Below are positions 11,386 to 26,036 of a stretch of DNA of 64,000 bases, piece by piece. The stretch's first letter is position 1; each line of letters starts with the position of its first letter. The stretch spans positions 11,555 through 75,554 of IMG/VR virus record IMGVR_UViG_3300044618_000713, one strand, 5' to 3'. The translations under genes and the position numbers were made by a program. The DNA is from a virus. A model generated the notes under the pieces. That model saw nothing but the letters and a program-made list of their open reading frames with translations. It was not told where the DNA came from and ran no database searches.

Positions 11386-11670
11386 TCACCAGAAACGTTT
11401 CGTCCTCAGATTGGCGCGCCAGCTTCCCGGCATGAACTGTCCACGCTGCCCGACGCGGAAGCGTCGGCCGCCAGCTTCGCAGTAGACAATGCTAAGAGGC
11501 GTGCGCACGCCTATCTTTAACAGGCATGGAAGCAATGGCTCAATCGCCAGCGCCAGCGTTTGCTTGTGACTTGACGTAATGATTTCGTCGCTTGCTAGCG
11601 TGGATAGTGTGTCATCCAGCGTCGCAGTATTGTCGGCGTAAGTGTCGGCGTAGACATAAAGCTGTGCCAT
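11386..11670 (-). CDS. Hypothetical protein
   Basis: AAAGGA RBS before ATG; 94 aa. Confidence 0.55.
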   Translation of the reverse strand: MAQLYVYADTYADNTATLDDTLSTLASDEIITSSHKQTLALAIEPLLPCLLKIGVRTPLSIVYCEAGGRRFRVGQRGQFMPGSWRANLRTKRFW

Positions 11671-13976: not shown

Positions 13977-14006
13977 TTGACGGGCGGCACATGCCGCCCG
14001 TATACT
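13977..14006 (+). promoter_or_regulatory. Sigma70 promoter with a palindrome in the spacer
   Basis: TTGACG-18-TATACT; ACGGGCGGCA-C-ATGCCGCCCGT inverted repeat overlaps the spacer. Confidence 0.55.
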
Positions 14007-14039
14007 TTCCACGCAATGTCAACTAATGGAGACTACACT

Positions 14040-14282
14040 ATGTGCAATGGATGGAAGAACCGCGAAACTTGGCTCGTCAACTTGTGGTTCGGCGACAACT
14101 TCGCAATGGACGCCGACGACGGCGTTGAAATCACGGCCGACTATATCCGCGACATTGTCGAGAACTACGTCGACGAAATCGTCCCCGCGTCGTCGTTCAT
14201 CGCGGACATGATGGACATGAACACTATTGATTACGACGAACTCGCCCGCCACTACGCTCCGGAGATGGCCGATGCTGAGTGA
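14040..14282 (+). CDS. Conserved phage hypothetical (NGW.N.ETW family)
   Basis: MCNGWKNRETWLVNLWF; GGAG RBS. Confidence 0.65.
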   Translation: MCNGWKNRETWLVNLWFGDNFAMDADDGVEITADYIRDIVENYVDEIVPASSFIADMMDMNTIDYDELARHYAPEMADAE

Positions 14283-14380
14283 TAGCCTGTACCTTGCCGC
14301 GCAACTCGCCAAGGTCGCCCTGCTATGCGGGGCGGCCTACACCTTCACCTACTTCATGCTTGCGATATAGGAGGGAAACA

Positions 14381-14692
14381 ATGTCTTATCTCTATGTGCC
14401 CGTGACCATTGGGGTCTATCGCGGCGACGTCCACTTGACCGATTTCGATTGCGAAGCCCGCGTTGACTATGAGCTGCCGGATGGCCCGTCTGGCGTGCTC
14501 GACTGGGACGTCACCGCGTTCCATTTCGCAGGCAAGCACAACGGCAAGCCGGTCTATACCGAAATCGGACGCACAGATCCGCTCTGGAAGGATCTGTACG
14601 CCCACATGGACCGCGAGTGGATCCACGATCAAGCCCGCGAGGCCCTTGCGGCCGACGGTATATGCAACATCTATCTGGACCCGGACCTATGA
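14381..14692 (+). CDS. Hypothetical protein
   Basis: AGGAGG RBS; MSYLYVPVTIG. Confidence 0.6.
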   Translation: MSYLYVPVTIGVYRGDVHLTDFDCEARVDYELPDGPSGVLDWDVTAFHFAGKHNGKPVYTEIGRTDPLWKDLYAHMDREWIHDQAREALAADGICNIYLDPDL

Positions 14693-15336
14693 CGCGGCCA
14701 CTATACGACGCCCGCGGCCTAGCGCCGGACCCGGAGCGGCTCGCGGAGGCGCACCATGTGCGCCGCGACCCGGACACTGACGAAGTATCGTGGCCACCGT
14801 CGCGCATGGCGGCGGTACTGCGTGAACTCAAACTTATAGATGAAAAGGAACTCGACCGTGACACATGACTTCACCTACTTGAACCAACTCAGCGGTGTCG
14901 ATCTGCTCGACCGCGCGCACCGCGGCGCTTGGATCGGCCCGGAGGCGCACATGATCCGCGCGCTTGCCGAACGGCTGGAGGAACACCTCGACGCTGTCGC
15001 TGATTACGACGCCATCAATGCCGCCCTCATGGACGCAAACCAGCGCGCAGAGGCTCTGGAAGATGAGCTTAACAATTGGAAATCCATCGCTGAAGCGCTG
15101 AACGGCCGCGTGAAGGAATTGACCTATTGACCCCGGACTTCGCCTATTGGGCAGGCCATTGCAGCGCGTTTGACGACGCGACCCTGCTACGCTTCCTTGC
15201 CGCCGTGGAGGCCCGCCGCAACCGCTACGACGCGGCCCTTGCGGCCGCGCAAGCGGAGGCCATGCGCCGCAACCTCATAAAAGAAAAGGCCCCCGTCACC
15301 GGGGGCCAGTCAACAACGGGGAGGAAACAGCCTTGA
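14689..15336 (+). CDS. Three coupled small hypothetical genes (14689-14868, ~14858-15130, 15127-15336)
   Basis: Overlapping start/stop codons; the middle one is coiled-coil. Confidence 0.5.
15279..15307 (-). terminator. Rho-independent terminator on the minus strand
   Basis: GGCCCCCG-GTGA-CGGGGGCC-TTTTCTTTT, inside a plus-strand ORF. Confidence 0.55.
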
Positions 15337-15797
15337 CGTACCACGACGTGCCACTGGACGCAATAGAGATAGAGCGGCGCCTACGGGCGTACCTTGACGA
15401 CCTGGTGCAGCTCGCGGGCGGCCCCGTGACGGTCTGGCGCGCAGCCCGCATGGCTATGGAGCACCTGCGGCGAGCGGCCGACGCGCCCAATAGCGAGCCC
15501 GTGACGCTGCCGACGACGCACCCCGAGCGGATCGTGTGGGCGGTGGCGACCGCGCATGGGCTCACAGCCGACATCCTGCGCGGCCCGTCGCGGACGCGCG
15601 ACGTCAGCGCGGCGCGGCATCATGCGGTCTGGGAACTGCGCCTGCGGCGACCCGACCTGCCGCTGGACAAGATCGCGGCTTGGCTGAACCGCCGTGATCA
15701 TGCGACGATGATCCACAGCTTGAAGACGTTCCGCAAACTGCGCGCGAACGGCCAATACGACGAAGAGCGCGCCCTTGTGGAGCGCGCCTTGTCATGA
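15333..15797 (+). CDS. DnaA C-terminal (domain IV) HTH protein
   Basis: ILRGPSRTRDVSAARH...IAAWLNRRDHATMIHS matches the Bac_DnaA_C pattern. Confidence 0.78.
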   Translation: MTYHDVPLDAIEIERRLRAYLDDLVQLAGGPVTVWRAARMAMEHLRRAADAPNSEPVTLPTTHPERIVWAVATAHGLTADILRGPSRTRDVSAARHHAVWELRLRRPDLPLDKIAAWLNRRDHATMIHSLKTFRKLRANGQYDEERALVERALS

Positions 15798-15849
15798 TCA
15801 TGCTGCTGGCCTTGGTGCTGGCGGCCCTTGTGGCCGCCTGGCTCGACCT

Positions 15850-18156
15850 CTAGGACTTCACCACTGTAAGCCCCGGACCTGCGGCGTGCTCGACCATGCG
15901 CCGCAGGTCGCTCTTTGAGTAGGTGCGCACCATGTCCTCGCGCGCCCATATGTTCTTCTTGGTCTGGAACTCGGCCGATTTGACGGCGCCGAGGTCGATC
16001 CAGCCCGCTTCCTTGAGGCCATGCAGCAGCGCCGCCTGGGGCACCTTGACGCCGCCGGGCGCGCCCTGCTGCAATGTGCTGCAAAGCTTGTGGAACGGCG
16101 AGGCGATGACGCCCGCGGCAAACTCGGCCGACGGCTTGTGCACCTGCTCGATGACGTAGCTTTCCGCCATGCTGCGGCCCGTCTCGATAAGACGCGTCCG
16201 GTAGTCCGTCCACGGCGGCATGGCTGCCGGGTTAAACGCCGACACATCGCGGTCGAGCAGCCACCGGCCCACGGCCTGGAGCCCGCCTTGCTTCTTGTAC
16301 CACGCCCACAGCGCGACCGCGTCGGCCTTCTCCATGCGCGGCGCGTGCGACCACAGGCAGAACCAGCGCCTGTCTTGCGTTGGCAGCGACAGCGGCACGG
16401 GATCGTTGGTGAACGCCAGCACAAACAGGCGGTTGACCATGTCGTAGGGGTGCAGGCCCTTGCGCTCGATGGTCAGCGTGTCGGGCGGCGCCGCGATGAT
16501 CGGCTTGAGCTTGTTGGACAGCGAGCGGCGCTGCGCGGCTTCCGGTTCCTTGAGCTCGTTAAGGATCAGGATCTCGCTCTCCAGCGCGTAGCCCCAGCGC
16601 GAATTGATCCCGTCAGCGTCCACCAGCCCGCGGTTGCGCAGGTCCGGCCCGCACACGGACCAGATGAAGGGGAACCAGAACGTGTCCTTGCCGCAGCCCT
16701 CGTCGCCGCCATGCAGCACGGCGTGATTGATCTTGATCTCCGGGTGCTGGAGCTTGTAGGCCATGACATCAAGGACGTGCTCGCGCTCGACCAGATCGGG
16801 GATCAGCAGCTCGGCATGGGCCAGCCATGGCGCGACGTCGCCCGGCGTGACGCCGGACAGGTCCGGCCGCGCGTTGACCCAGCGGTTGCCGTAGATCTCC
16901 CCGTCGCGCGCCACGAGGACGCTATCGCCCGCAGCGTAGGTCAGCCCGCGCAACACCCGCGCGCCCGCGCCCTGGCGGTTCTCGTCGTAACAGACGGACG
17001 CCTCGACCTTGCGTTGCGTGTGGATGGACTTGCAATCGACGTGTCTAAACACGGCGTTGAACGCGCCGCGCGTCATCTCCCGCCGGTCGATCATGTCGAA
17101 ATAGGCGTCATCCTCGACGATGTACGCGAAGCGGCTGAACCACTCGCGCTTGGTCAAGCGGCCCAGCTCCTTGCGGTCAACCTCGGCGATGACCTCGGCA
17201 GCCGCGTCAGGGAACGCCTCGGTCGGCTGGATCGTCGCGGCCACCATGGCCATGCGCTCGGCCACCAGCTCCTCGCGGAAGCCCGCCTGCACCGTCGGCC
17301 CGCCCTGCTCGGCCACCCATGCAAGGAAGGCGTTGCTGTCGAGGTGCTCGCAGTGGGAGTGGTAGCAGCAGAACGCCCGGTTGACGGGCGAGTAACGCCC
17401 CTCGATCTGGCCGTCCGTGTGCGCGGCATGGTTCGGGCAGACGACGCCGCACCAGCCCTCGCGGTTAACCTGGGAGAGCACCAGCCCCTGCTCGGAGAGC
17501 CACTTGAGCACGCTGTCGGAGCCCGTGTCGCGCAGGCGGATGACCTGCGGCCCGGCGCTGTCGGCGGGCGCTGGCGTGACGTCCAGACCCTCGCAGATGG
17601 CGGCAAGCGTGTATTCGCGCTCAGGGTGGAACTCGACCAACCGCGCCGGGAACAGGTCACGCCCCGGCTTGAGGTTGGGCGAGCCCGGCAAGCGGCAGTT
17701 GCGCACTGCGTTGGTGGCGCCGGGGTCCGTGTAGCCTGCGGCTGCGATGGCCGTGATGGCCGCGACGAACTCGCCCTTGGTCGGCTGCTCCTTGAAAGCG
17801 TAGCCCCACTGGCAGTTGCCGGGCGACGTCTCGACGATCCACGTCGGCGGCACGGGCGGCACCTTGGACTTGGTGCCGATGTCGTCCAGCATCATGAACA
17901 GGACGAACTCGCAGTTGGCCGCCGAGGCCGACGGCTTGCCGTCGAAGCGGTCGATAATGAACGAGCCCGTGTTGATGAACCAGCTCTCGCCGTCCCTGCG
18001 CGCACGCGACGGCAGGAAGGCGGGCCACGTGAACTTGAGGGTGCCGTCGCGGTGCGTGACCTGCTGCCCGTCGTACATGACGGGCTTCTGGCGCACGATC
18101 AGGGCTGTTTCGCCGTCCGGCGCAAGGCCGGTTAGATATTCTAGAAGGTCTGACAT
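15850..18156 (-). CDS. Primase-helicase (RepB/AEP-like primase plus DUF5906-like NTPase)
   Basis: MLDDIG, ETSPGN.QWGY, CPNH..H and C.HSHC Zn motifs, Walker A GDEGCGKD. Confidence 0.85.
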   Translation of the reverse strand: MSDLLEYLTGLAPDGETALIVRQKPVMYDGQQVTHRDGTLKFTWPAFLPSRARRDGESWFINTGSFIIDRFDGKPSASAANCEFVLFMMLDDIGTKSKVPPVPPTWIVETSPGNCQWGYAFKEQPTKGEFVAAITAIAAAGYTDPGATNAVRNCRLPGSPNLKPGRDLFPARLVEFHPEREYTLAAICEGLDVTPAPADSAGPQVIRLRDTGSDSVLKWLSEQGLVLSQVNREGWCGVVCPNHAAHTDGQIEGRYSPVNRAFCCYHSHCEHLDSNAFLAWVAEQGGPTVQAGFREELVAERMAMVAATIQPTEAFPDAAAEVIAEVDRKELGRLTKREWFSRFAYIVEDDAYFDMIDRREMTRGAFNAVFRHVDCKSIHTQRKVEASVCYDENRQGAGARVLRGLTYAAGDSVLVARDGEIYGNRWVNARPDLSGVTPGDVAPWLAHAELLIPDLVEREHVLDVMAYKLQHPEIKINHAVLHGGDEGCGKDTFWFPFIWSVCGPDLRNRGLVDADGINSRWGYALESEILILNELKEPEAAQRRSLSNKLKPIIAAPPDTLTIERKGLHPYDMVNRLFVLAFTNDPVPLSLPTQDRRWFCLWSHAPRMEKADAVALWAWYKKQGGLQAVGRWLLDRDVSAFNPAAMPPWTDYRTRLIETGRSMAESYVIEQVHKPSAEFAAGVIASPFHKLCSTLQQGAPGGVKVPQAALLHGLKEAGWIDLGAVKSAEFQTKKNIWAREDMVRTYSKSDLRRMVEHAAGPGLTVVKS

Positions 18157-18176
18157 TGTTTCCTCGTTCTTATGGG

Positions 18177-18368
18177 TCAGTCGTCGTTTTTGAGCGGCAG
18201 TACAGAGTACCTTGTTGGCTCGTGGGTAACAAAATCCCACGATATTGTGCGGCTGCTGGCGGGCCAGGCATTCAAGGCCGCCGCAATCGCCCCGCCTACG
18301 TCGCCAATCGCGGCGTACCCACTCGCGGCTTCGATTGCTTCGTCGGGTATCTGGTCACGTTTGATCAC
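18177..18368 (-). CDS. Small QIPDE/NAWP family protein
   Basis: MIKRDQIPDEAIEAA...IAAALNAWP...VLPL. Confidence 0.6.
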   Translation of the reverse strand: MIKRDQIPDEAIEAASGYAAIGDVGGAIAAALNAWPASSRTISWDFVTHEPTRYSVLPLKNDD

Positions 18369-18371
18369 GGG

Positions 18372-18725
18372 TCACCTCAAGGTTCTGAAAGCAATGGCGT
18401 TGTGGACCGTTCGCACGCGGGTCCGCACCCTGTTTCCGTCGTTTCCGCTTTTCACGAGCCAGCCCTTGGCCGTCCTGCCGACGATCACGCCGACGTGATT
18501 GCGCCAGACGACGATGGCGCCGATCCGCGCCCGCGTCGGGCGTCCGACCTTGGCCCAGTTCCGCGCGCGCCACAGATCCTTGCGATGCGGCATTCCGAAA
18601 TAATGCGCCAGATAGCAGCCGCACCAACGTGACGGGCAGCCCCTCGGCTGACCGGGCTCGCGGGCCTCGACGCTGGCGGTAGAGATCAGCAGCGCGGCTA
18701 GCGCAGCGAACAAGACATTCTTCAT
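18372..18725 (-). CDS. Exported CHAP/NlpC-P60-like cysteine hydrolase
   Basis: Signal peptide MKNVLFAALAALLISTASVEA; WCGCY, GAIVVWRNHVGV, SGN. Confidence 0.7.
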   Translation of the reverse strand: MKNVLFAALAALLISTASVEAREPGQPRGCPSRWCGCYLAHYFGMPHRKDLWRARNWAKVGRPTRARIGAIVVWRNHVGVIVGRTAKGWLVKSGNDGNRVRTRVRTVHNAIAFRTLR

Positions 18726-18733
18726 GGTTCACC

Positions 18734-20716
18734 TCACTTGCCGTACCGTTGCATCACCTTGCCGCTGGCACCCAATGGTAGCCCCTCGGCCCACGCGGGA
18801 GGGGTGATCATAACAGCCTGCATCGCGGCTGCCAATTCTTCTGATTTTTCTGTATCAACCTCAGCTACAATTTCGTCGTGGACGTGCAGCACGACCTCGA
18901 CGCCCGCGGCGTCCAGACCGCGCAGCGCCTCGCGCAGGATGTCGTTGGCGGTGGCCTGCACGATGTTCTCGCAGGCGAGCCCGCGCCAGAGCCGCGCCCG
19001 TGGCCACTCCTTGGCGTCTGCCGCAGGCTTCCACGACGCCTTGGCGTAGGACACGCCGTCCTCCTCGAACCGCGCGTAGGGGTAGCACAGCACGCGGCCC
19101 GACGGCAGCGCGTACCAAAGGTGGTCGCCTTGCTTCATGTACTGCACGCGGCCCGCCTTGAACACCTCGCCGGGGTTGCGGATGGCGCGGGTATACGCCT
19201 GCTCCAGATCGGCCCAGAACGGCACGGCCCACGGGTTGGCGCGGCGCCACAGATCGACCGTGCGCCTCGCCTCGCTCTCGGGCATGTGGACGCCGTAGAC
19301 GCGGCCCATGGCACTGAACGCACCCACGCCGCCGCCGAACCCGCAGGCCAGCACGGCCACCTTGCCAAGCTGCCGCTGCTCGTCAGTGACGGCCGTCTCC
19401 TCGACGTTGAACATGCGCGCGGCGACGGCAACGTAGATGTCGCGGCCCTCGCGGAACACGTCCAGCGTCTCCTCGCCGTCCATCGACAGCCACGGCGTGA
19501 CGCGGGCCTCGATCTGGGCATAGTCGAACACGGCGAAGACCTTGCCCTCGGCCGGGATCAACGCCGGACGCAGCATCGACTTCAGCACGTCGGTGACGCG
19601 CTTGCCGAACTCGGGCACGATCTGGTGCCCGCGCACGAGCGCCTGGCGGGCTAGTTCAGGCTCTTTGGCACATTTTCGGGGGAAGTTGTGGACTTGGAGA
19701 CCATAACTTGATGCGCGGCCCGTAGCGCTTCCCCCAGCAAACACAAACGCACCCCGGACGCGACTGTCGAGATCATCTGAGAGCGATGCAGCTCGCTCAA
19801 ACTTCGCCACCGACGATGCCCAGAGATCGTCCGCGCACTGCACCACTTCAGCGACTTCCGCAGGGACTTCATCAGGGTTTTCCTCCGCAAGGGTTAATAC
19901 GCTCGCGCGCACGGTCTTGTCCAAGCATCTGTGCGCCCGGTCATTTTTCATAAGCGTCATAAGTTTTCGGGCTTCAGGACCGACACGATCCCAAACCCAA
20001 TCTTTCATTCGTACGCTGCGCACGCTCACAATTTCGCGCTGCGTTATCTCGCAAACCAGATTTTGTATCTCAATCGTCTCGGCGGCGGCATACTTGACGG
20101 CTGCCTGCGCCAGCGGGCGGTCGAGGCGCACGCCGCGGTCGTTGATGCGCTCGTTGACGTGGTAGTCGAGCAGCTCCTCGTCGGTCAGCCCGCGCATGGC
20201 CTTGGAGAAGGCCCGCATGGCGCGCACGTCCTGCTCGCAGTACTCGATCATCTCCTGCATCAGCCCGGCGTCCTCGCGGAACGTGCCGTTGGCCTGCGGG
20301 ATGGACAGCGCACGCACCAGTGCTGCGCCGCGGTGATCCTTGCGCATCCCTGCGCCCGCGAAGCGGCCCACGTCCTCCAGAGAGCCTGGCGCGCAGTTGG
20401 CGCGGGCCTGCGTCGCGGTGCAGTAGAACTGCGTCAGCGCGGGCTCCGGCACCTTGAAATCAGGGCAGATCACATACCAGAACAACAGCCGCTCGAAGGC
20501 GGCGTTGTGCGCGCGGATCTGTACGCCGGAAAGAATTGCGGCCGAAACTTTCTGTGGAAAGGGTTGCTCAGGCGTCCACGTCTGCACGTCCTCGTCATCG
20601 AAGGCGTAGGACATGCACAGCACCTCGGTGCTGGGGTCCTGCATATAGTTGTAGACGCCACGCACCTTCAGATCGCAGCGGCTGCGGGTCTCGAAGTCAA
20701 GCCAGAGTATTGTCAT
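18734..20716 (-). CDS. polA: Family A DNA polymerase (phage type)
   Basis: Exonuclease LDFETRS and AHNAAFE; motif A DYAQIEAR, motif B RQLGKVAVLACGFG, motif C VHDE. Confidence 0.93.
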   Translation of the reverse strand: MTILWLDFETRSRCDLKVRGVYNYMQDPSTEVLCMSYAFDDEDVQTWTPEQPFPQKVSAAILSGVQIRAHNAAFERLLFWYVICPDFKVPEPALTQFYCTATQARANCAPGSLEDVGRFAGAGMRKDHRGAALVRALSIPQANGTFREDAGLMQEMIEYCEQDVRAMRAFSKAMRGLTDEELLDYHVNERINDRGVRLDRPLAQAAVKYAAAETIEIQNLVCEITQREIVSVRSVRMKDWVWDRVGPEARKLMTLMKNDRAHRCLDKTVRASVLTLAEENPDEVPAEVAEVVQCADDLWASSVAKFERAASLSDDLDSRVRGAFVFAGGSATGRASSYGLQVHNFPRKCAKEPELARQALVRGHQIVPEFGKRVTDVLKSMLRPALIPAEGKVFAVFDYAQIEARVTPWLSMDGEETLDVFREGRDIYVAVAARMFNVEETAVTDEQRQLGKVAVLACGFGGGVGAFSAMGRVYGVHMPESEARRTVDLWRRANPWAVPFWADLEQAYTRAIRNPGEVFKAGRVQYMKQGDHLWYALPSGRVLCYPYARFEEDGVSYAKASWKPAADAKEWPRARLWRGLACENIVQATANDILREALRGLDAAGVEVVLHVHDEIVAEVDTEKSEELAAAMQAVMITPPAWAEGLPLGASGKVMQRYGK

Positions 20717-20763
20717 GAGTGTGGTCGGGGCGCGGCCCCAGCAGAAACCGCGCCCCTCGCCCG

Positions 20764-21402
20764 TTACGCGCTGCGACGGCGGCGGGTGGGGGCATCCACC
20801 GGCGCTTCGCTTGCGGGCGTCTCTTCCGTCTGGCCATCAAGGCTCAGCCAATTCACGACCTCGAACACGGGCGTGAAGATGCGCCCGTAGGACTTGTGAG
20901 TGTAGTGGTCCTTCTTCAGCCTCACCGCGGGCACCGGCTTGGCCTGATCGGCCTCGACCTGCGCCGCAATGTCAAGGGCCAGCTTCTGCACGGCACGCTT
21001 GCCGCCGACGCTGGTGACGCTGTAGCGCACCTCAAGTCCCTCGTCCTCACCGGACATGCACTTGAGGCTCATGCCGACCTGAAGCTCCCAGCCGCGCTTG
21101 GCCTGCGGCGGCGCGGGGTCCAGTTCGGGCAGCGGCTCGTTGACCGGCACCATCTTCTCGGCCAGCACCTCGCCATCGCCCCAGGCGATGTAGCCGTGCA
21201 CGAACGAGAACGGGTTGACGGCCCAGGTGCTGCCGTCCTCCACCTCGGTCTGGTCAGCGCCGAACACCCAGTGTCCGGTCTTGTCCATCTTGAGGATCGC
21301 CACACCATCGGCACCACCGACGCTCGCATCAAGCGAGCGCAGTGCCTGCGACAGGTTCTGGACGGAGGGAAGGTTGGCCTTCGCAAAGGTAATCGCGTTC
21401 AT
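20764..21402 (-). CDS. Putative ssDNA-binding protein
   Basis: Sits between the Cas4-like gene and polA; beta-rich; YTHKSYGRIFTP. Confidence 0.55.
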   Translation of the reverse strand: MNAITFAKANLPSVQNLSQALRSLDASVGGADGVAILKMDKTGHWVFGADQTEVEDGSTWAVNPFSFVHGYIAWGDGEVLAEKMVPVNEPLPELDPAPPQAKRGWELQVGMSLKCMSGEDEGLEVRYSVTSVGGKRAVQKLALDIAAQVEADQAKPVPAVRLKKDHYTHKSYGRIFTPVFEVVNWLSLDGQTEETPASEAPVDAPTRRRRSA

Positions 21403-21415
21403 CTTATTGTCCTTT

Positions 21416-22540
21416 CTAGACAAGTTTACCAAGGGCAGCAGCAAGATGCTTGCCGACCTGCAACGACGCCGGGCGCGGATCATCCGCGGGTGCCAGCGTG
21501 TCACCCGATGAGACGGCGGTGATGAGCCCTTCCGGCATGGCGAGCTTGTGCTTCTTCAGCACCTTCTCGACCTGCGCCGGGCTCTTCAGCTCCGTCAATT
21601 CCTCAGCACTACAGCCTGCTTCGGCAAGGGCTGTCAATGCCGTCTGTTCGTTCACCCACTGGCGCATCGCCCGCTTGGGCACCAACTTCCAGCCGGGCAG
21701 CTCGACGCCCGCCTCCAGCAGTTCGACGGCCATCTCGCGGGCGTCCCTGATCCAGCCCTCCAGCAGGTCGATGCTGGCCAAGGCTTCCGAAAGCCGGAAG
21801 ATGTTGACCGCCTTGATGTTCTCGCGCTTGGCGCGCTCGACGGCGCCGTTCACCAGCGGGCAGATCGACTTGGCAGCGCACCAGCGGCAGTGGTCGCCGG
21901 TCGCCAGCGGTGCGTCCGGCCGCTGCGCGGTCTTGACGGCCATGATCAGCTCGGCCTCGAAGCGGCGCACCCGGTCGAGGTCCGTCACCCAGCGCCGCAC
22001 ATGCGGCGGCTGCACGATGATCACCTCGACCGTCTCGACGCCCTCGAAGGCCCAGCGTGTCGCCTCGGTGCGAAGTGCGGCAGCCGTGTAGAAGAGCGCC
22101 TGCGGGTTCTCTTCAGCCTCGACAGGCACGCCATCGCCAAACTTCCAGTCCAGCAGGATACCGCGATTGCCAATCCGGCCAACAAGATCGGCGGAACCAA
22201 AAACACCAGGGAGAGCGTCACCAAAGCCCACCACCTGCTCGACCGCGTATTCCATCTGTCCATCGGGGTCGATATCATTCAGCGCCTCCCATGCGGGCAG
22301 CAGCTTGCGCTCCAGCCGGTCCTCCGTCAACTCGATGCCGTTGTGCATCGTGCCGAGGAAGTCGCGCGGGTCCTTATGCGTATCCAGAATGGTGGCGATG
22401 ACGTTGTGCAGCAGCGTGCCCTCGTCGGCGTAGCTGCTGGACGGCTTGGGCGGCACCTGCTGCACAAGCGCGACGCTGCCGGGGCACGCGATGACGCGCT
22501 TGGCGGTCGAGCCGCCGACAATGTTAGAGTGTTGGGCCAT
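21416..22540 (-). CDS. Cas4-like PD-(D/E)XK nuclease (DUF2800-like)
   Basis: CPGS, EGT.LH, FGSAD, DWKFG, Q..FY, GDHCRWC.AK..CP. Confidence 0.85.
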   Translation of the reverse strand: MAQHSNIVGGSTAKRVIACPGSVALVQQVPPKPSSSYADEGTLLHNVIATILDTHKDPRDFLGTMHNGIELTEDRLERKLLPAWEALNDIDPDGQMEYAVEQVVGFGDALPGVFGSADLVGRIGNRGILLDWKFGDGVPVEAEENPQALFYTAAALRTEATRWAFEGVETVEVIIVQPPHVRRWVTDLDRVRRFEAELIMAVKTAQRPDAPLATGDHCRWCAAKSICPLVNGAVERAKRENIKAVNIFRLSEALASIDLLEGWIRDAREMAVELLEAGVELPGWKLVPKRAMRQWVNEQTALTALAEAGCSAEELTELKSPAQVEKVLKKHKLAMPEGLITAVSSGDTLAPADDPRPASLQVGKHLAAALGKLV

Positions 22541-22618
22541 ACTGTATTCTCCTGTTGTTTCGTCAGTCGTTACAGATTTCTTGTTGACCTGTCAAGCATT
22601 GTTTGTTAGAGGCTGGTC

Positions 22619-22933
22619 ATGGTACGCGAAAGTGAAATCGAGAAGTACTTCGTTTGGACGGTGCAGCGCATGGGCGGGACGGCCTACAAGTTCAAGTCGC
22701 CCAACCACCGCGGCGTGGCCGACCGCATCGCCTGTCTGCCGGACGGCTCGACGTGGTTTGTCGAGTTGAAGGCACCCGGCGGACGGCCATCCCCGCTCCA
22801 GAAACTCTTCGCGGCCCGCATGAAGGAACTCAGGCAGAACTACACGATACTATGGTCAAAGACGGAGATAGACGAATGGCGGCATACTATAACGAGTTCG
22901 ACCCCTACGCAGCCCAATGGCTGCGCAACCTGA
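22619..22933 (+). CDS. VRR-NUC nuclease
   Basis: ESEIEK, GVADRI, FVELKAPGG, PLQ. Confidence 0.85.
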   Translation: MVRESEIEKYFVWTVQRMGGTAYKFKSPNHRGVADRIACLPDGSTWFVELKAPGGRPSPLQKLFAARMKELRQNYTILWSKTEIDEWRHTITSSTPTQPNGCAT

Positions 22934-24054
22934 TCGACAGTAAACTGATAGCGGAAGGTGATGTAGATGACAGATCAATTCGGGGCGTGGCTCCGGGCGA
23001 CCTCAAGGGTTACACGCAGTGCCACTTCTTCGCCGGTGTCGGCGTCTGGTCCTACGCCCTCCGTCTCGCAAGATGGCCCGACGACCGGCCCGTCTGGACC
23101 GGCTCCTGCCCTTGCCAGCCATTCAGCGCCGCCGGAAAGGGAGCAGGATTTGCCGACGAGCGTCACCTCTGGCCGGAGTTTCATCGGCTCATCAGCGAGT
23201 GCCGCCCTCCAGTTGTCTTTGGAGAGCAGGTTGCGAGCAAGGACGGCCTCGGCTGGCTCGACACTGTACAGTCTGACATGGAAGCATCGGGCTACGCCAT
23301 TGGGGCGGCAGATCTGTGCGCTGCGGGCATCGGCGCCCCGCACATCCGCCAGCGCCTCTGGTTTGTCGGAGAAAGGTTGGACGACACCGCAGGCGCACGA
23401 CACCTCGGGGCGCTCGCTCGGGCAGAAGGAGAAGCACGGGACGAAGCACGGCTGCGCCTGTCTGGTGAGGGACGCAGATCTGGCGGGCTGGCCAACGCCG
23501 CGCTCGACGGACGGCGACAAGGGATCGAGGACGGCGGAAGGCTGCGAAGCGGAGATCGCGCGGAAGGGTCGGCTGGACGACCTGCCATCGACGGCGGTTT
23601 ATCTGGCGGGCTGGCCGACACCATTGGCGGCGGACAGCCGGGGCCGGGCGGGGGCGGCGGCGCACAAGGACAGCGAACTTCCGAACGCGGTTTGCAAAGT
23701 GGATTGGTCGGGCTGGAACACGCCAGCAGCCTCGGACGGGAACGGGGGCAAGCGCCCGCACCCGGACACGACGATGACGGGCCAGCACCCGGAGGGCAGG
23801 AAGGTGAACATGGGGCTGGCCTCACAAGTTCACATCGGCTTCCTCAAGACGGAGCCCGCCCGACTAACGGCCACTGGCGAGATGCTGACTGGCTCCACTG
23901 CCGGGATGGCCGCTGGCGGCCAGTTGAACCCGGCACATTCCCGTTGGCTCATGGGGCTCCCGCCCGAGTGGGACGCCTGCGCGCCTACGGCAATGCCATC
24001 GTCCCGCAAGCAGCGGCAGAAGTGATAGGAGCCTACCTTGACGCTCGCCCTTAG
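22876..24054 (+). CDS. C5 cytosine DNA methyltransferase, alpha polypeptide
   Basis: Motifs I FFAGVG, IV GSCPCQPFS, VI GEQV, VIII HIRQRLW, X YGNAIV; motif IX absent. Confidence 0.88.
   Translation: MAAYYNEFDPYAAQWLRNLIDSKLIAEGDVDDRSIRGVAPGDLKGYTQCHFFAGVGVWSYALRLARWPDDRPVWTGSCPCQPFSAAGKGAGFADERHLWPEFHRLISECRPPVVFGEQVASKDGLGWLDTVQSDMEASGYAIGAADLCAAGIGAPHIRQRLWFVGERLDDTAGARHLGALARAEGEARDEARLRLSGEGRRSGGLANAALDGRRQGIEDGGRLRSGDRAEGSAGRPAIDGGLSGGLADTIGGGQPGPGGGGGAQGQRTSERGLQSGLVGLEHASSLGRERGQAPAPGHDDDGPAPGGQEGEHGAGLTSSHRLPQDGARPTNGHWRDADWLHCRDGRWRPVEPGTFPLAHGAPARVGRLRAYGNAIVPQAAAEVIGAYLDARP
22967..24025 (+). CDS. Overprinted MTase beta polypeptide (+1 frame; exact start uncertain)
   Basis: Four GWxTPxxxD repeats and motif-IX-like GQLNPAHSRWLMGLPPEW; frame open for 352 codons. 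Confidence 0.72.
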   Translation: MTDQFGAWLRATSRVTRSATSSPVSASGPTPSVSQDGPTTGPSGPAPALASHSAPPEREQDLPTSVTSGRSFIGSSASAALQLSLESRLRARTASAGSTLYSLTWKHRATPLGRQICALRASAPRTSASASGLSEKGWTTPQAHDTSGRSLGQKEKHGTKHGCACLVRDADLAGWPTPRSTDGDKGSRTAEGCEAEIARKGRLDDLPSTAVYLAGWPTPLAADSRGRAGAAAHKDSELPNAVCKVDWSGWNTPAASDGNGGKRPHPDTTMTGQHPEGRKVNMGLASQVHIGFLKTEPARLTATGEMLTGSTAGMAAGGQLNPAHSRWLMGLPPEWDACAPTAMPSSRKQRQK

Positions 24055-25366
24055 ACCCTACCAGAACGACGCGGTGACGTTCCTCTACGAGCGTGACCGC
24101 GCCATGATCCTGGCCCCGGTGGGCGCGGGCAAGACCGCCATCACGCTCACCGCCATGCAAGAGTTCATGGTCAACGGCGTGGTCAAGCGGTGGCTGGTCG
24201 TCGCCCCCAAGCGGGTCTGCACCGACGTGTGGCCGGTCGAGGCCCCCAAGTGGGCGCCGGACCTGACCATCGCCGTGGCGGTCGGTAACGCCGCCAAGCG
24301 CCGCGCCGCCTTCGCCTCAGACGCCGCGGTGGTCGTGGTCAACTACGACGTTCTCGACGTCGTGGGCGAGGACTTCGCGCGGTTTGACGGCATCGTGTTC
24401 GACGAACTGACCCGGCTCAAGAACCCGTCCGGCAAGCGGTTCAAGGCACTGCACAAGCACCTAGGGCGCTTCAACGTGCGGATCGGCCTCACCGGATCGT
24501 TCACGTCAAACGGGCTGGAGGATGTGTTCGGACAGTGCTTCGTGATCGACCCGACGCTGCTGGGCCGCACCAAGGGGGCGTTCCTGCAGCAGTACTTCGT
24601 CTGCATCAACCGCGACTTTGGCGAGTGGATGCCACGGCGCGGTGCGCTGGAGCAGGTGATGACCCGCATCCGCCCGGCGACGTTCGTGCTGGAGCCCGGC
24701 GTCTACAAGGACAAGCTGCCGCCGTGCCATGTGGTCGAGATGCGCTGCGACATGCCCGACCGCGAGCCATACGAGAAGATGAAACGCGACTTCATGGTTA
24801 AGATGCAGGGCAAGGACATCACCGCCATGTCGGCGGCTGCGGTCACGACCAAGCTTCAGCAGATGGCCAGCGGTTGGGTCTACCATACGGTGGACTGGAA
24901 CGGGCCGTACCGTCTGCCGGTCTGGTTCTCGACGCACCGCTTCGACCTGCTGGACGAGGTGCTGGAGGGCAACCAGCGGGCCAACACGCTGATCGTCTAC
25001 AACTTCATCGAGGAGTTGGCGGAACTGAAGCGCCGCTATCCTGGGCGGCTGTGGACGCTGGACGACGGTGCCGACGTGATCGAGCGCTGGAACGCGGGCA
25101 AGATTCCGCTGCTGGCGGTCCACCCCAAGTCGGCAGGCCACGGCCTCAACCTGCAACACGGCGGCCATCACCTGGTGTTCCTGTCGCTGCCGTGGTCGCT
25201 GGAACTCTACGAGCAGGTCGTCGGCCGTCTGCACCGCAGCGGGCAGGAGCGCGACGTGTGGGTCTACGTCCTGCTGACGAACAAGACTATCGACGAGCGC
25301 ATCTGGGCGGCCCTTGCCGACAAGCGCGCCATATCGGACATCGCACTGGAGGAGTTGAAGGGATGA
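24038..25366 (+). CDS. SNF2-type helicase
   Basis: LRPYQ, GAGKT, FDEL, LTGS, GHGLNLQ, Q..GRLHRSGQ. Confidence 0.9.
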   Translation: MTLALRPYQNDAVTFLYERDRAMILAPVGAGKTAITLTAMQEFMVNGVVKRWLVVAPKRVCTDVWPVEAPKWAPDLTIAVAVGNAAKRRAAFASDAAVVVVNYDVLDVVGEDFARFDGIVFDELTRLKNPSGKRFKALHKHLGRFNVRIGLTGSFTSNGLEDVFGQCFVIDPTLLGRTKGAFLQQYFVCINRDFGEWMPRRGALEQVMTRIRPATFVLEPGVYKDKLPPCHVVEMRCDMPDREPYEKMKRDFMVKMQGKDITAMSAAAVTTKLQQMASGWVYHTVDWNGPYRLPVWFSTHRFDLLDEVLEGNQRANTLIVYNFIEELAELKRRYPGRLWTLDDGADVIERWNAGKIPLLAVHPKSAGHGLNLQHGGHHLVFLSLPWSLELYEQVVGRLHRSGQERDVWVYVLLTNKTIDERIWAALADKRAISDIALEELKG

Positions 25367-25563
25367 GTTGGAATTGGCACGATTTGAACGTGGTTCTGGC
25401 GATGCGTGACGAGCACCAGGTCAAGGCCATGCTGGACGAGGAGGTCGAGGTCCACAAGCGCCCGACCTACGCGGTGCGCATCCATCAGCGCTACACGACG
25501 CTGCGCGCGGTGCGCGAACGCAAGGAAATTCTCGCCGCACTCTCAGGAGACAAGCATGAGTGA
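25363..25563 (+). CDS. Hypothetical protein
   Basis: ATGA overlap with the helicase; RIHQRYTTLR.RER. Confidence 0.6.
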   Translation: MSWNWHDLNVVLAMRDEHQVKAMLDEEVEVHKRPTYAVRIHQRYTTLRAVRERKEILAALSGDKHE

Positions 25564-25816
25564 TATTGTAGAACGTCTGCTCCTACTTGCAGCCGTAGAT
25601 AATTGCCAAGCATCTATTGAAGCCGCCGACACCATCACCCACCTCACCGCAGAGAACGAGAGGCTGCGGGCGGCGCTGCGTGAGTGTGAGGCGGAGCTAA
25701 ACGCCTACTACCGGATGGAATATCCGAGCGACCACCCATACAGCCAGAAGGAACTGGCGCAAGCTATGGCGTCTAATCCTGCCACCGTTGCACTGAAGGA
25801 GACAAACAATGATTGA
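25556..25816 (+). CDS. MSDIVERL family small coiled-coil protein
   Basis: Paralog of 62749-63126. Confidence 0.65.
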   Translation: MSDIVERLLLLAAVDNCQASIEAADTITHLTAENERLRAALRECEAELNAYYRMEYPSDHPYSQKELAQAMASNPATVALKETNND

Positions 25817-26036
25817 GCTTGAACAGATACCGGAGGAAGTCCTCCGCGCGTTGTGTGCCAGCATGGGCTGCGAGTGGGCCATGCAAGACAAAGAGGACCA
25901 GATAATCATTCGCCGTCACATCACCGCCGCTATCAATGCGTGGCCTAATATAGATAAGATTTATAGGTCTGAGGACGAGAAACTATTCACCATCATCCTC
26001 CCCCTGACACAGGAGAACAACAATGATCAAGGCTGA
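25809..26036 (+). CDS. QIPDE/NAWP family protein
   Basis: MIELEQIPEEV...AAINAWP...ILPLTQE. Confidence 0.65.
   Translation: MIELEQIPEEVLRALCASMGCEWAMQDKEDQIIIRRHITAAINAWPNIDKIYRSEDEKLFTIILPLTQENNNDQG

Follow-up and report, generated by a model that had tools for sequence, protein, structure and literature searches.

A Phage C5 Cytosine Methyltransferase Gene Enclosing a Second Coding Frame with an Array of Exchangeable Units

Two Overlapping Frames Share the Motifs of a C5 Methyltransferase

The DNA analyzed here (the window) is a 64,000 nt stretch, positions 11,555 to 75,554, of the virus record IMGVR_UViG_3300044618_000713 (IMG/VR), and coordinates are those of the window unless another locus is named. 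It carries a gene for a C5 cytosine methyltransferase within which a second open reading frame (ORF) of 352 codons lies on the same strand, in the +1 frame. We refer to the outer frame (frame 0) as alpha and to the nested frame as beta. Dual coding at this locus is under selection, and the open second frame is neither a chance occurrence nor a sequencing error. The two products probably make up a two-chain C5 methyltransferase resembling M.EcoHK31I, in which the recognition part has been shifted to the nested chain as an exchangeable array. A preliminary description of this DNA had proposed that overlapping frames specify two chains and that the nested one supplies motif IX, and the computations reported below support that proposal.

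The alpha coding sequence (CDS; 22876..24054, plus strand) runs from an ATG at 22876 to a stop at 24054 and specifies 392 aa, the catalytic, S-adenosylmethionine (AdoMet)-binding body of a C5 cytosine methyltransferase. Motifs I (F-x-G-x-G, 23026–23043), IV (P-C-Q with the catalytic Cys, 23110–23127), VI (23221–23232), VIII (Q-x-R-x-R type, 23332–23367) and X (G-N-x-V/I, 23989–24000) are all found in alpha and are invariant or nearly so across an alignment of 46 homologs; motif VI, usually of the E-N-V type, reads G-E-Q-V. From motif I to motif VIII (23026..23367), variation is found mostly at alpha third codon positions. The family PF00145 matches residues 74–170 only (54.8 bits against a cut-off of 22, E = 1.4e-14), the TIGR00675 score of 42.3 is under its cut-off of 100.65, and the alpha family profile matches residues 76–176 of M.HhaI (E = 5e-15, motifs IV–VIII); alpha has the N-terminal two fifths of a C5 cytosine methyltransferase. 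In place of a target-recognition region and motif IX, there is an unconserved linker of about 160 residues between motifs VIII and X (residues ~166–325, 23371..23850). It is a Gly/Arg/Ala/Asp-rich read-through of the beta units, which has no conserved columns and is kept open, and the motif IX-like stretch is instead present in the +1 frame. Alpha ends with a conserved block of about 60 residues (23851..24051) that includes motif X and invariant columns D338–L357 and Y371–I375. Translation and alignment therefore agree with the set of motifs first read from this frame, with the lack of motif IX and with the Gly/Arg-rich middle.

The beta CDS (22967..24025, plus strand) lies wholly within alpha and, as originally reported, is open for 352 codons, from the ATG at 22967 to the stop at 24025. 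Its first 75 residues (22967..23191) form a stop-free, Ser/Thr/Pro/Ala-rich spacer with a sequence dictated by alpha. There follows a conserved core (23192..23374), a predicted helix and hairpin with the pattern G-S-T-L-Y..L-T-W-K..T-P, which overlaps alpha motifs VII–VIII. Four tandem units then lead to a C-terminal block with invariant columns (23855..23986), within which is the motif IX-like stretch (23918–23971). This stretch occurs in beta only, and beta continues for 18 codons beyond it.

When alpha and beta were each used in tblastn searches of 50,697 phage records, the matches were at the same loci, and the same division of motifs between frames is present in four distant phages: Edwardsiella phage eiAU, Klebsiella phage KO-TP1, a Ralstonia phage and the low-GC Paenibacillus phage Xenia. 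PHROGs holds one family per frame, with phrog_363 matching alpha residues 1–390 (E = 1.8e-85) and phrog_1008 matching beta residues 16–343 (E = 1.9e-35). Beta has no family match in Pfam or NCBIfam, its profile gave only chance-level matches to PDB sequences (E = 0.13), and a search of the ESM Atlas returned only unnamed viral clusters. Both ORFs are annotated in some GenBank records, such as K1ind2 (a "C-specific methylase" and an "Mte8-like protein") and PhiXhv-5 (two methyltransferase entries); according to a literature search, "Mte8-like protein" is an annotation label only.

Evidence of Coding in Both Frames

The region has a GC content of 64–67%, at which long spurious ORFs are common, and the beginning of beta is, as noted, dictated by alpha. 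Synonymous-codon shuffling of the N-terminal region of alpha cannot produce stops in the window copy (probability of an open frame 1.0; median 0.6 across loci), the codon set there already lacking stop-prone codons. It might then be argued that alpha alone is real, and that the open +1 frame is a by-product of GC-rich coding and alpha conservation. We consider this highly improbable. Both frames are open over ~0.8–1.3 kb in 81 of 83 viral and phage loci (80 from IMG/VR, plus phages), whereas the third frame of the same DNA has 8–27 stops, and the layout is kept in the low-GC Paenibacillus phage. Beta has more than 6170 homologs among predicted proteins, and alpha lacks the motif IX that beta supplies. 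The preliminary description had named stops in the +1 frame of homologs as one observation that would speak against it; in the relatives examined the beta frame is open, and no set of homologs with scattered stops was seen. Of 80 loci in bacterial genomes (Alpha-, Beta- and Gammaproteobacteria, Desulfovibrio and a small number of other groups), 60 satisfied a strict motif test, and most of the others likewise have two open frames or are truncated where the contig ends.

The expected number of stops can be estimated in several ways. The +1 frames of the flanking genes contain ~3.2 stops per 100 codons, so about 11 would be expected over the 352 beta codons. For the alpha frame across the units, expectations were derived from the beta residues and local codon usage: 4.7 stops are expected and none is present in any of 58 loci, with a median probability of 0.009 that the frame is open. 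At the other end of the overlap, the first 95 codons of beta are stop-free in all 68 loci compared. As the synonymous shuffle is uninformative there, the null model was taken from flank codon usage, and gives a probability of about 0.1 per locus. Wobble positions are largely randomized among the loci despite their relatedness.

A codon-resolved alignment of 77 non-redundant loci was used to calculate the entropy at each position, and the pattern changes repeatedly along the overlap. At 22967–23250 (motifs I–VI) variation is highest at alpha third positions, and within the beta spacer this corresponds to beta position 2. The pattern switches to beta at 23255–23290 (the beta core), returns to the alpha type at 23327–23370 (motif VIII) and is again of the beta type over the units. 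Both frames are constrained at 23858–23929, beta strongly so at 23930–23965 (motif IX), where constraint in this frame is at its strongest, and from 23966 onwards alpha dominates (motif X). Within nine unit types, beta third positions have 0.8–1.2 bits against 0.25–0.67 at positions 1 and 2, and alpha-frame residues are about twice as variable as those of beta. Purifying selection is therefore seen in the beta frame where alpha is unconserved, which argues against an alpha-only gene.

An assembly or sequencing artefact, or a decaying pseudogene with two compensating indels, could be imagined from the source of the record, a metagenome-derived virus contig, and from one database protein (P0036, described below) that looks like a frameshifted fusion. 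However, the same arrangement occurs in the independently sequenced isolates eiAU, KO-TP1, K1ind2, PhiXhv-5 and Xenia and in more than 150 other loci, leaving this explanation with a negligible probability.

The internal start of beta is conserved. In the window, a Shine-Dalgarno-like sequence read from the DNA, GGAAGGTGA (22953..22961, plus strand), ends 5 nt before the ATG at 22967. In nearly all of the 77 loci, a beta-frame ATG precedes motif I by 32, 44, 62, 68 or 74 nt; it is usually only a few codons from the stop that opens the frame and mostly has a purine-rich element before it. This feature also bears on whether the two frames might be joined by programmed ribosomal frameshifts (+1 past motif VIII, then -1 ahead of motif X) to give a single polypeptide with the normal order of motifs I–VIII, recognition region, IX and X. 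The order of the constrained segments is roughly that of a single chain, and single-chain relatives with an in-frame motif IX exist (Mycobacterium phage Magnar gp43, see below). But the beta-constrained core (23255–23326) lies upstream of alpha motif VIII, so that at least four shifts would be required; no conserved slippery site can be seen where the frame would have to change, and the length of the unit region varies freely. Nor would frameshifting need alpha to be open through the units, or beta to be open back to motif I with a conserved ATG. We regard frameshifting as very improbable. The conserved beta start is consistent with two chains that are translated independently, as are the beta N-terminus and the alpha linker, each of which stays open though its sequence is unconstrained.

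The Unit Array and Cassette Exchange

The four units of the window begin at 23375, 23486, 23609 and 23711, as previously noted, and share a G-W-x-T-P start. Unit 1 (type C, 23375..23485) has 37 aa, with within-type variation mostly at beta third positions; unit 2 (type F, 23486..23608) has 41 aa; unit 3 (type Y, 23609..23710) has 34 aa; and unit 4 (type A, 23711..23854) has 47–48 aa, somewhat longer than the ~40 aa first estimated. The types were defined by greedy clustering of unit cores, since single-linkage clustering merged nearly all of them via their shared ends. Across 149 beta proteins there are 1–7 units per protein, with a median length of 37 residues, and 121 unit types are combined into 129 distinct architectures, that of the window being C-F-Y-A. 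It had been anticipated that the number of units would vary among homologs in multiples of 3 nt, and this is so, with no stops in either frame. Many types are found at several positions, while type C is first in 38 of its 41 occurrences and type A last in 54 of 56.

Beta scaffolds (core plus C-terminal block) that are 88–98% identical to that of the window bear quite different sets of 2–6 units. At the DNA level, locus L004 shares 94–95% identity with the window over the scaffold and 87–96% over units 1, 3 and 4, but its second unit is of the unrelated type K and the identity there falls to 61%, which is background. Locus L008 is 95–96% identical over the scaffold, and its four units are all unrelated to those of the window. 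Near-identical scaffolds with unrelated units indicate recombinational exchange of whole units, in whole codons and with both frames preserved. The units are cassettes exchanged by recombination among phages, as the preliminary description had suggested.

The same description pointed to 16 identical bp at two unit junctions as homology at which modules could be shuffled. The repeat is present (copy 1, 23478..23493; copy 2, 23601..23616; plus strand), and the copy spacings of 123 and 102 nt are multiples of 3. Its identity is a consequence of identical peptides (L-A-G-W-P) and GC-biased codons, and across the family the third codon positions of the junctions vary as freely as elsewhere; junction nucleotides are not conserved beyond the effect of the shared peptide. 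A role for the repeat as the driver of exchange is not supported as it stands, and one as a selected recombination site was rejected, as peptide identity and codon bias suffice to explain it.

Predicted Association of Alpha and Beta

Alpha was co-folded with beta residues 75–352, from custom 46-row alignments, in three runs and alongside three controls. The interaction prediction score from aligned errors (ipSAE) was 0.92 in the three runs and 0.01 for the best control, so the co-fold that had been proposed as a check came out in favor of an interaction. At least 59% of contacts were common to the runs, and the predicted local distance difference test (pLDDT) of the partner was at least 61. 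Confident contacts are predicted between the core, motif IX and the beginning of the last unit on the side of beta, and the N-terminal helix, motifs VI–VIII and C-terminal block on the side of alpha; the core is placed against alpha residues 141–168, and unit 4 is also predicted to touch alpha. The segments in predicted contact are the conserved segments. The model supports binding of beta by alpha, without proving it. Folded alone (AlphaFold2), beta has a mean pLDDT of 54.5: residues 1–75 look disordered (pLDDT below 40), the core is a helix plus hairpin (pLDDT 73–85), units 1–3 are uncertain and unit 4 has a pLDDT of 77–82. A Foldseek search of the PDB with this low-confidence model gave no match at E ≤ 0.001.

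Proposed Mechanism and Role of the Units

We propose that one stretch of mRNA gives rise to two polypeptides, both of which are presumably made and both needed for activity. Alpha would be the large domain of a C5 methyltransferase, with the AdoMet pocket, motif IV and its catalytic Cys, and motifs VI, VIII and X, and would have a disordered linker in place of the target-recognition region, the sole role of this linker being to allow ribosomes to pass from motif VIII to motif X. Beta, initiated at its own ATG (22967), would bring the helix–hairpin core, a row of ~37-residue WxTP units and motif IX, which together may take the place of the small domain that reads the DNA. Its docking against the N-terminal helix, motifs VI–VIII and the C-terminal block of alpha would be through the core, the last unit and motif IX. 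Recombination among phages would swap unit cassettes by whole codons, without ever bringing a stop into the alpha frame.

Several points weigh against this two-chain model. The translation of beta and the dependence of alpha on it are presumed, and the link of units to particular DNA sequences is hypothetical. The per-locus probabilities of open frames are not to be multiplied, because the loci are phylogenetically related. The ipSAE mark, reached by 58 of 80 complexes of solved structure and by 2 of 110 mismatched pairs, is calibrated only roughly for the present case because custom alignments were used, and the co-fold may have passed partly from the model's memory of single-chain C5 methyltransferases, in which motif IX is packed on the large domain. 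Units 1–3 are also of low confidence in the model and make no confident contact with alpha.

The units presumably determine the methylated sequence. The array resembles the tandem target-recognizing domains of Bacillus phage methylases, which makes one unit per specificity an attractive inference, and several units may correspond to several specificities, although we put the chance of this at somewhat under even. In a bolder and still more tentative form of the idea, each ~37-residue WxTP unit would read one DNA motif autonomously, the number of methylated motifs would equal the number of units, and recombination at unit borders would track the restriction repertoires of hosts; the cassettes, all free of stops in the alpha frame, would then be a natural library that is legal in both frames, carried by a chain that itself overprints the catalytic subunit.

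A different view of the array keeps the two-chain enzyme but takes the units to be structural repeats, either a spacer, solenoid or DNA clamp forming one surface, or a set in which units act singly. The specificity of the enzyme would then be single, or slight, and the turnover of units would reflect pressures of another kind, for instance to evade anti-methylase factors of the host, or tolerance of drift. The common unit ends (W-x-T-P ... L-A-G) would suit such repeats, as would the strong position preferences of types A and C, the limitation of confident alpha contact to the last unit, and the low confidence of units 1–3 when beta is folded alone. Against this, the unit cores, and not just the ends, are under strong purifying selection within each type, and unrelated cores are exchanged between near-identical scaffolds, as expected of specificity determinants under diversifying pressure. 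The target-recognizing domains of the multispecific Bacillus phage methylases are close in size to the WxTP units. On balance we give this view well under even odds.

Comparison with Known Systems

The nearest parallel to the proposed two-chain enzyme is M.EcoHK31I, the beta chain of which is small, at about 61 aa. As in the phage gene, its alpha gene encloses the whole of the beta ORF, which is read in another frame, with motifs I–VIII and X in alpha and motif IX in beta. Association of the chains is required for activity in this enzyme (E. coli HK31, recognition sequence YGGCCR), and its alpha chain also holds the target-recognition domain (PMC2836561). Compared by description, the phage genes differ in that the middle of alpha is unconserved filler, and it is the 352-aa beta that bears the whole recognition-like region as exchangeable units.

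The multispecific methylases of Bacillus phages have tandem short modules with conserved borders and unrelated cores, and the sets differ between related phages; their presumed role is to protect phage DNA against several restriction systems. Those of the temperate phages (M.SPRI, M.Phi3TI, M.Rho11sI and M.H2I) are reportedly single polypeptides in one frame, in which each module has been found experimentally to confer one specificity. The similarity to beta, again by description, lies in the tandem modules between motifs VIII and IX that vary among relatives, whereas the phage units described here are on a separate, overprinted +1 ORF. Relative to single-chain enzymes such as M.HhaI and M.HaeIII (PF00145), alpha matches M.HhaI over motifs IV–VIII and has recognizable motifs I and X, but the small domain would be on another chain, and Pfam covers alpha residues 74–170 and none of beta.

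A single-chain relative of the family is gp43 of Mycobacterium phage Magnar (L086, 1309–2136), a 275-aa protein with motifs IX and X in one frame. The sequence W-L-M-G-L-P, in frame before motif X, is the equivalent of the motif IX-like stretch of beta. In the +1 frame of the Magnar gene, a short unit-like stretch (L-L-P-T-P) follows motif VIII and is then closed by a stop.

Another hidden frame has been reported in an actinophage methylase gene, which conceals an HNH endonuclease read out of frame (ShiLan domain) as a selfish homing insert (PMC11855218). Here too, a phage methylase gene carries a long insert that is open in the host frame and specifies a functional protein in another. Unlike that homing element, beta is a proposed enzyme subunit in a layout conserved family-wide. 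In the literature searched, M.EcoHK31I and the ShiLan HNH were found, and no description of this two-frame phage methylase family. The two-frame principle (M.EcoHK31I) and cassette arrays (Bacillus phages) are known, while the two together, an overlap of this size and a family of this breadth appear to be undescribed in that literature.

Variants of the Beta Frame

Some loci have extended or altered beta frames. In Edwardsiella phage eiAU (L001, 1616–3040), beta is stop-free into an in-frame gene for an N6-adenine methyltransferase (L001 2495–3040), giving a stop-to-stop ORF of 474 codons, and either a beta–Dam fusion or translational coupling is possible. The beta ORFs of L036 and L037 also extend past alpha. 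Upstream of the conserved core, and in the beta frame, some beta homologs (P0006, P0077 and P0086) have an HNH/endonuclease VII-like domain, with a PF01844 match in P0086, and recall the out-of-frame HNH of the actinophage gene (PMC11855218). In the 426-aa database protein P0036, the N-terminus of alpha, through motif VI, is fused in frame to the beta core and units; it comes from a 1.5-kb contig and is probably a frameshifted copy or a read error.

Gene Neighborhood

The record is a 75.5-kb metagenome-derived virus contig with terminal repeats, in which alpha and beta, as two same-strand ORFs, are flanked by a VRR-NUC-like gene and an SNF2-type helicase gene. The VRR-NUC-like ORF (22619–22933) is read in the beta frame and has a 58-nt overlap with the start of alpha; two more beta-frame stops occur between it and the beta ATG. 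At the other end, the predicted TTG start of the helicase gene overlaps the final 17 nt of alpha (24038–24054). With such overlapping ends, the VRR-NUC, alpha/beta and helicase genes form a tightly packed block that is probably co-translated. The GC content is 62–68% over the replication module (14000–26000) and 50–58% in most of the remaining window, a contrast that, within a single virus contig with terminal repeats, makes the genome look compositionally mosaic. No restriction gene is adjacent to alpha/beta, and the locus is surrounded by replication genes. This setting fits a phage-protective orphan methylase, and the role of the enzyme is presumably to protect phage DNA from host restriction; it may, as the preliminary description supposed, be a tunable anti-restriction system.

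Implications

With a same-strand overlap of ~350 codons and both frames under selection, this locus ranks with the longest dual-coding arrangements put forward for a DNA phage. Homologs of the nested protein number in the thousands in phages and prophages of Proteobacteria, Desulfovibrio and Paenibacillus, yet the protein belongs to no Pfam or NCBIfam family and is usually unannotated. What the locus contributes is the coincidence of a two-frame layout with a cassette array, in which every cassette is additionally under constraint to remain stop-free in the alpha frame. Should alpha and beta together make up the enzyme, many phage "orphan methylases" would be two-gene systems, and expression of the annotated gene with altered codon usage would abolish the second subunit unnoticed. 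Should the units determine specificity, they would offer a natural modular route to programmed C5 methylation, and a legible history of the contest between phages and restriction systems.

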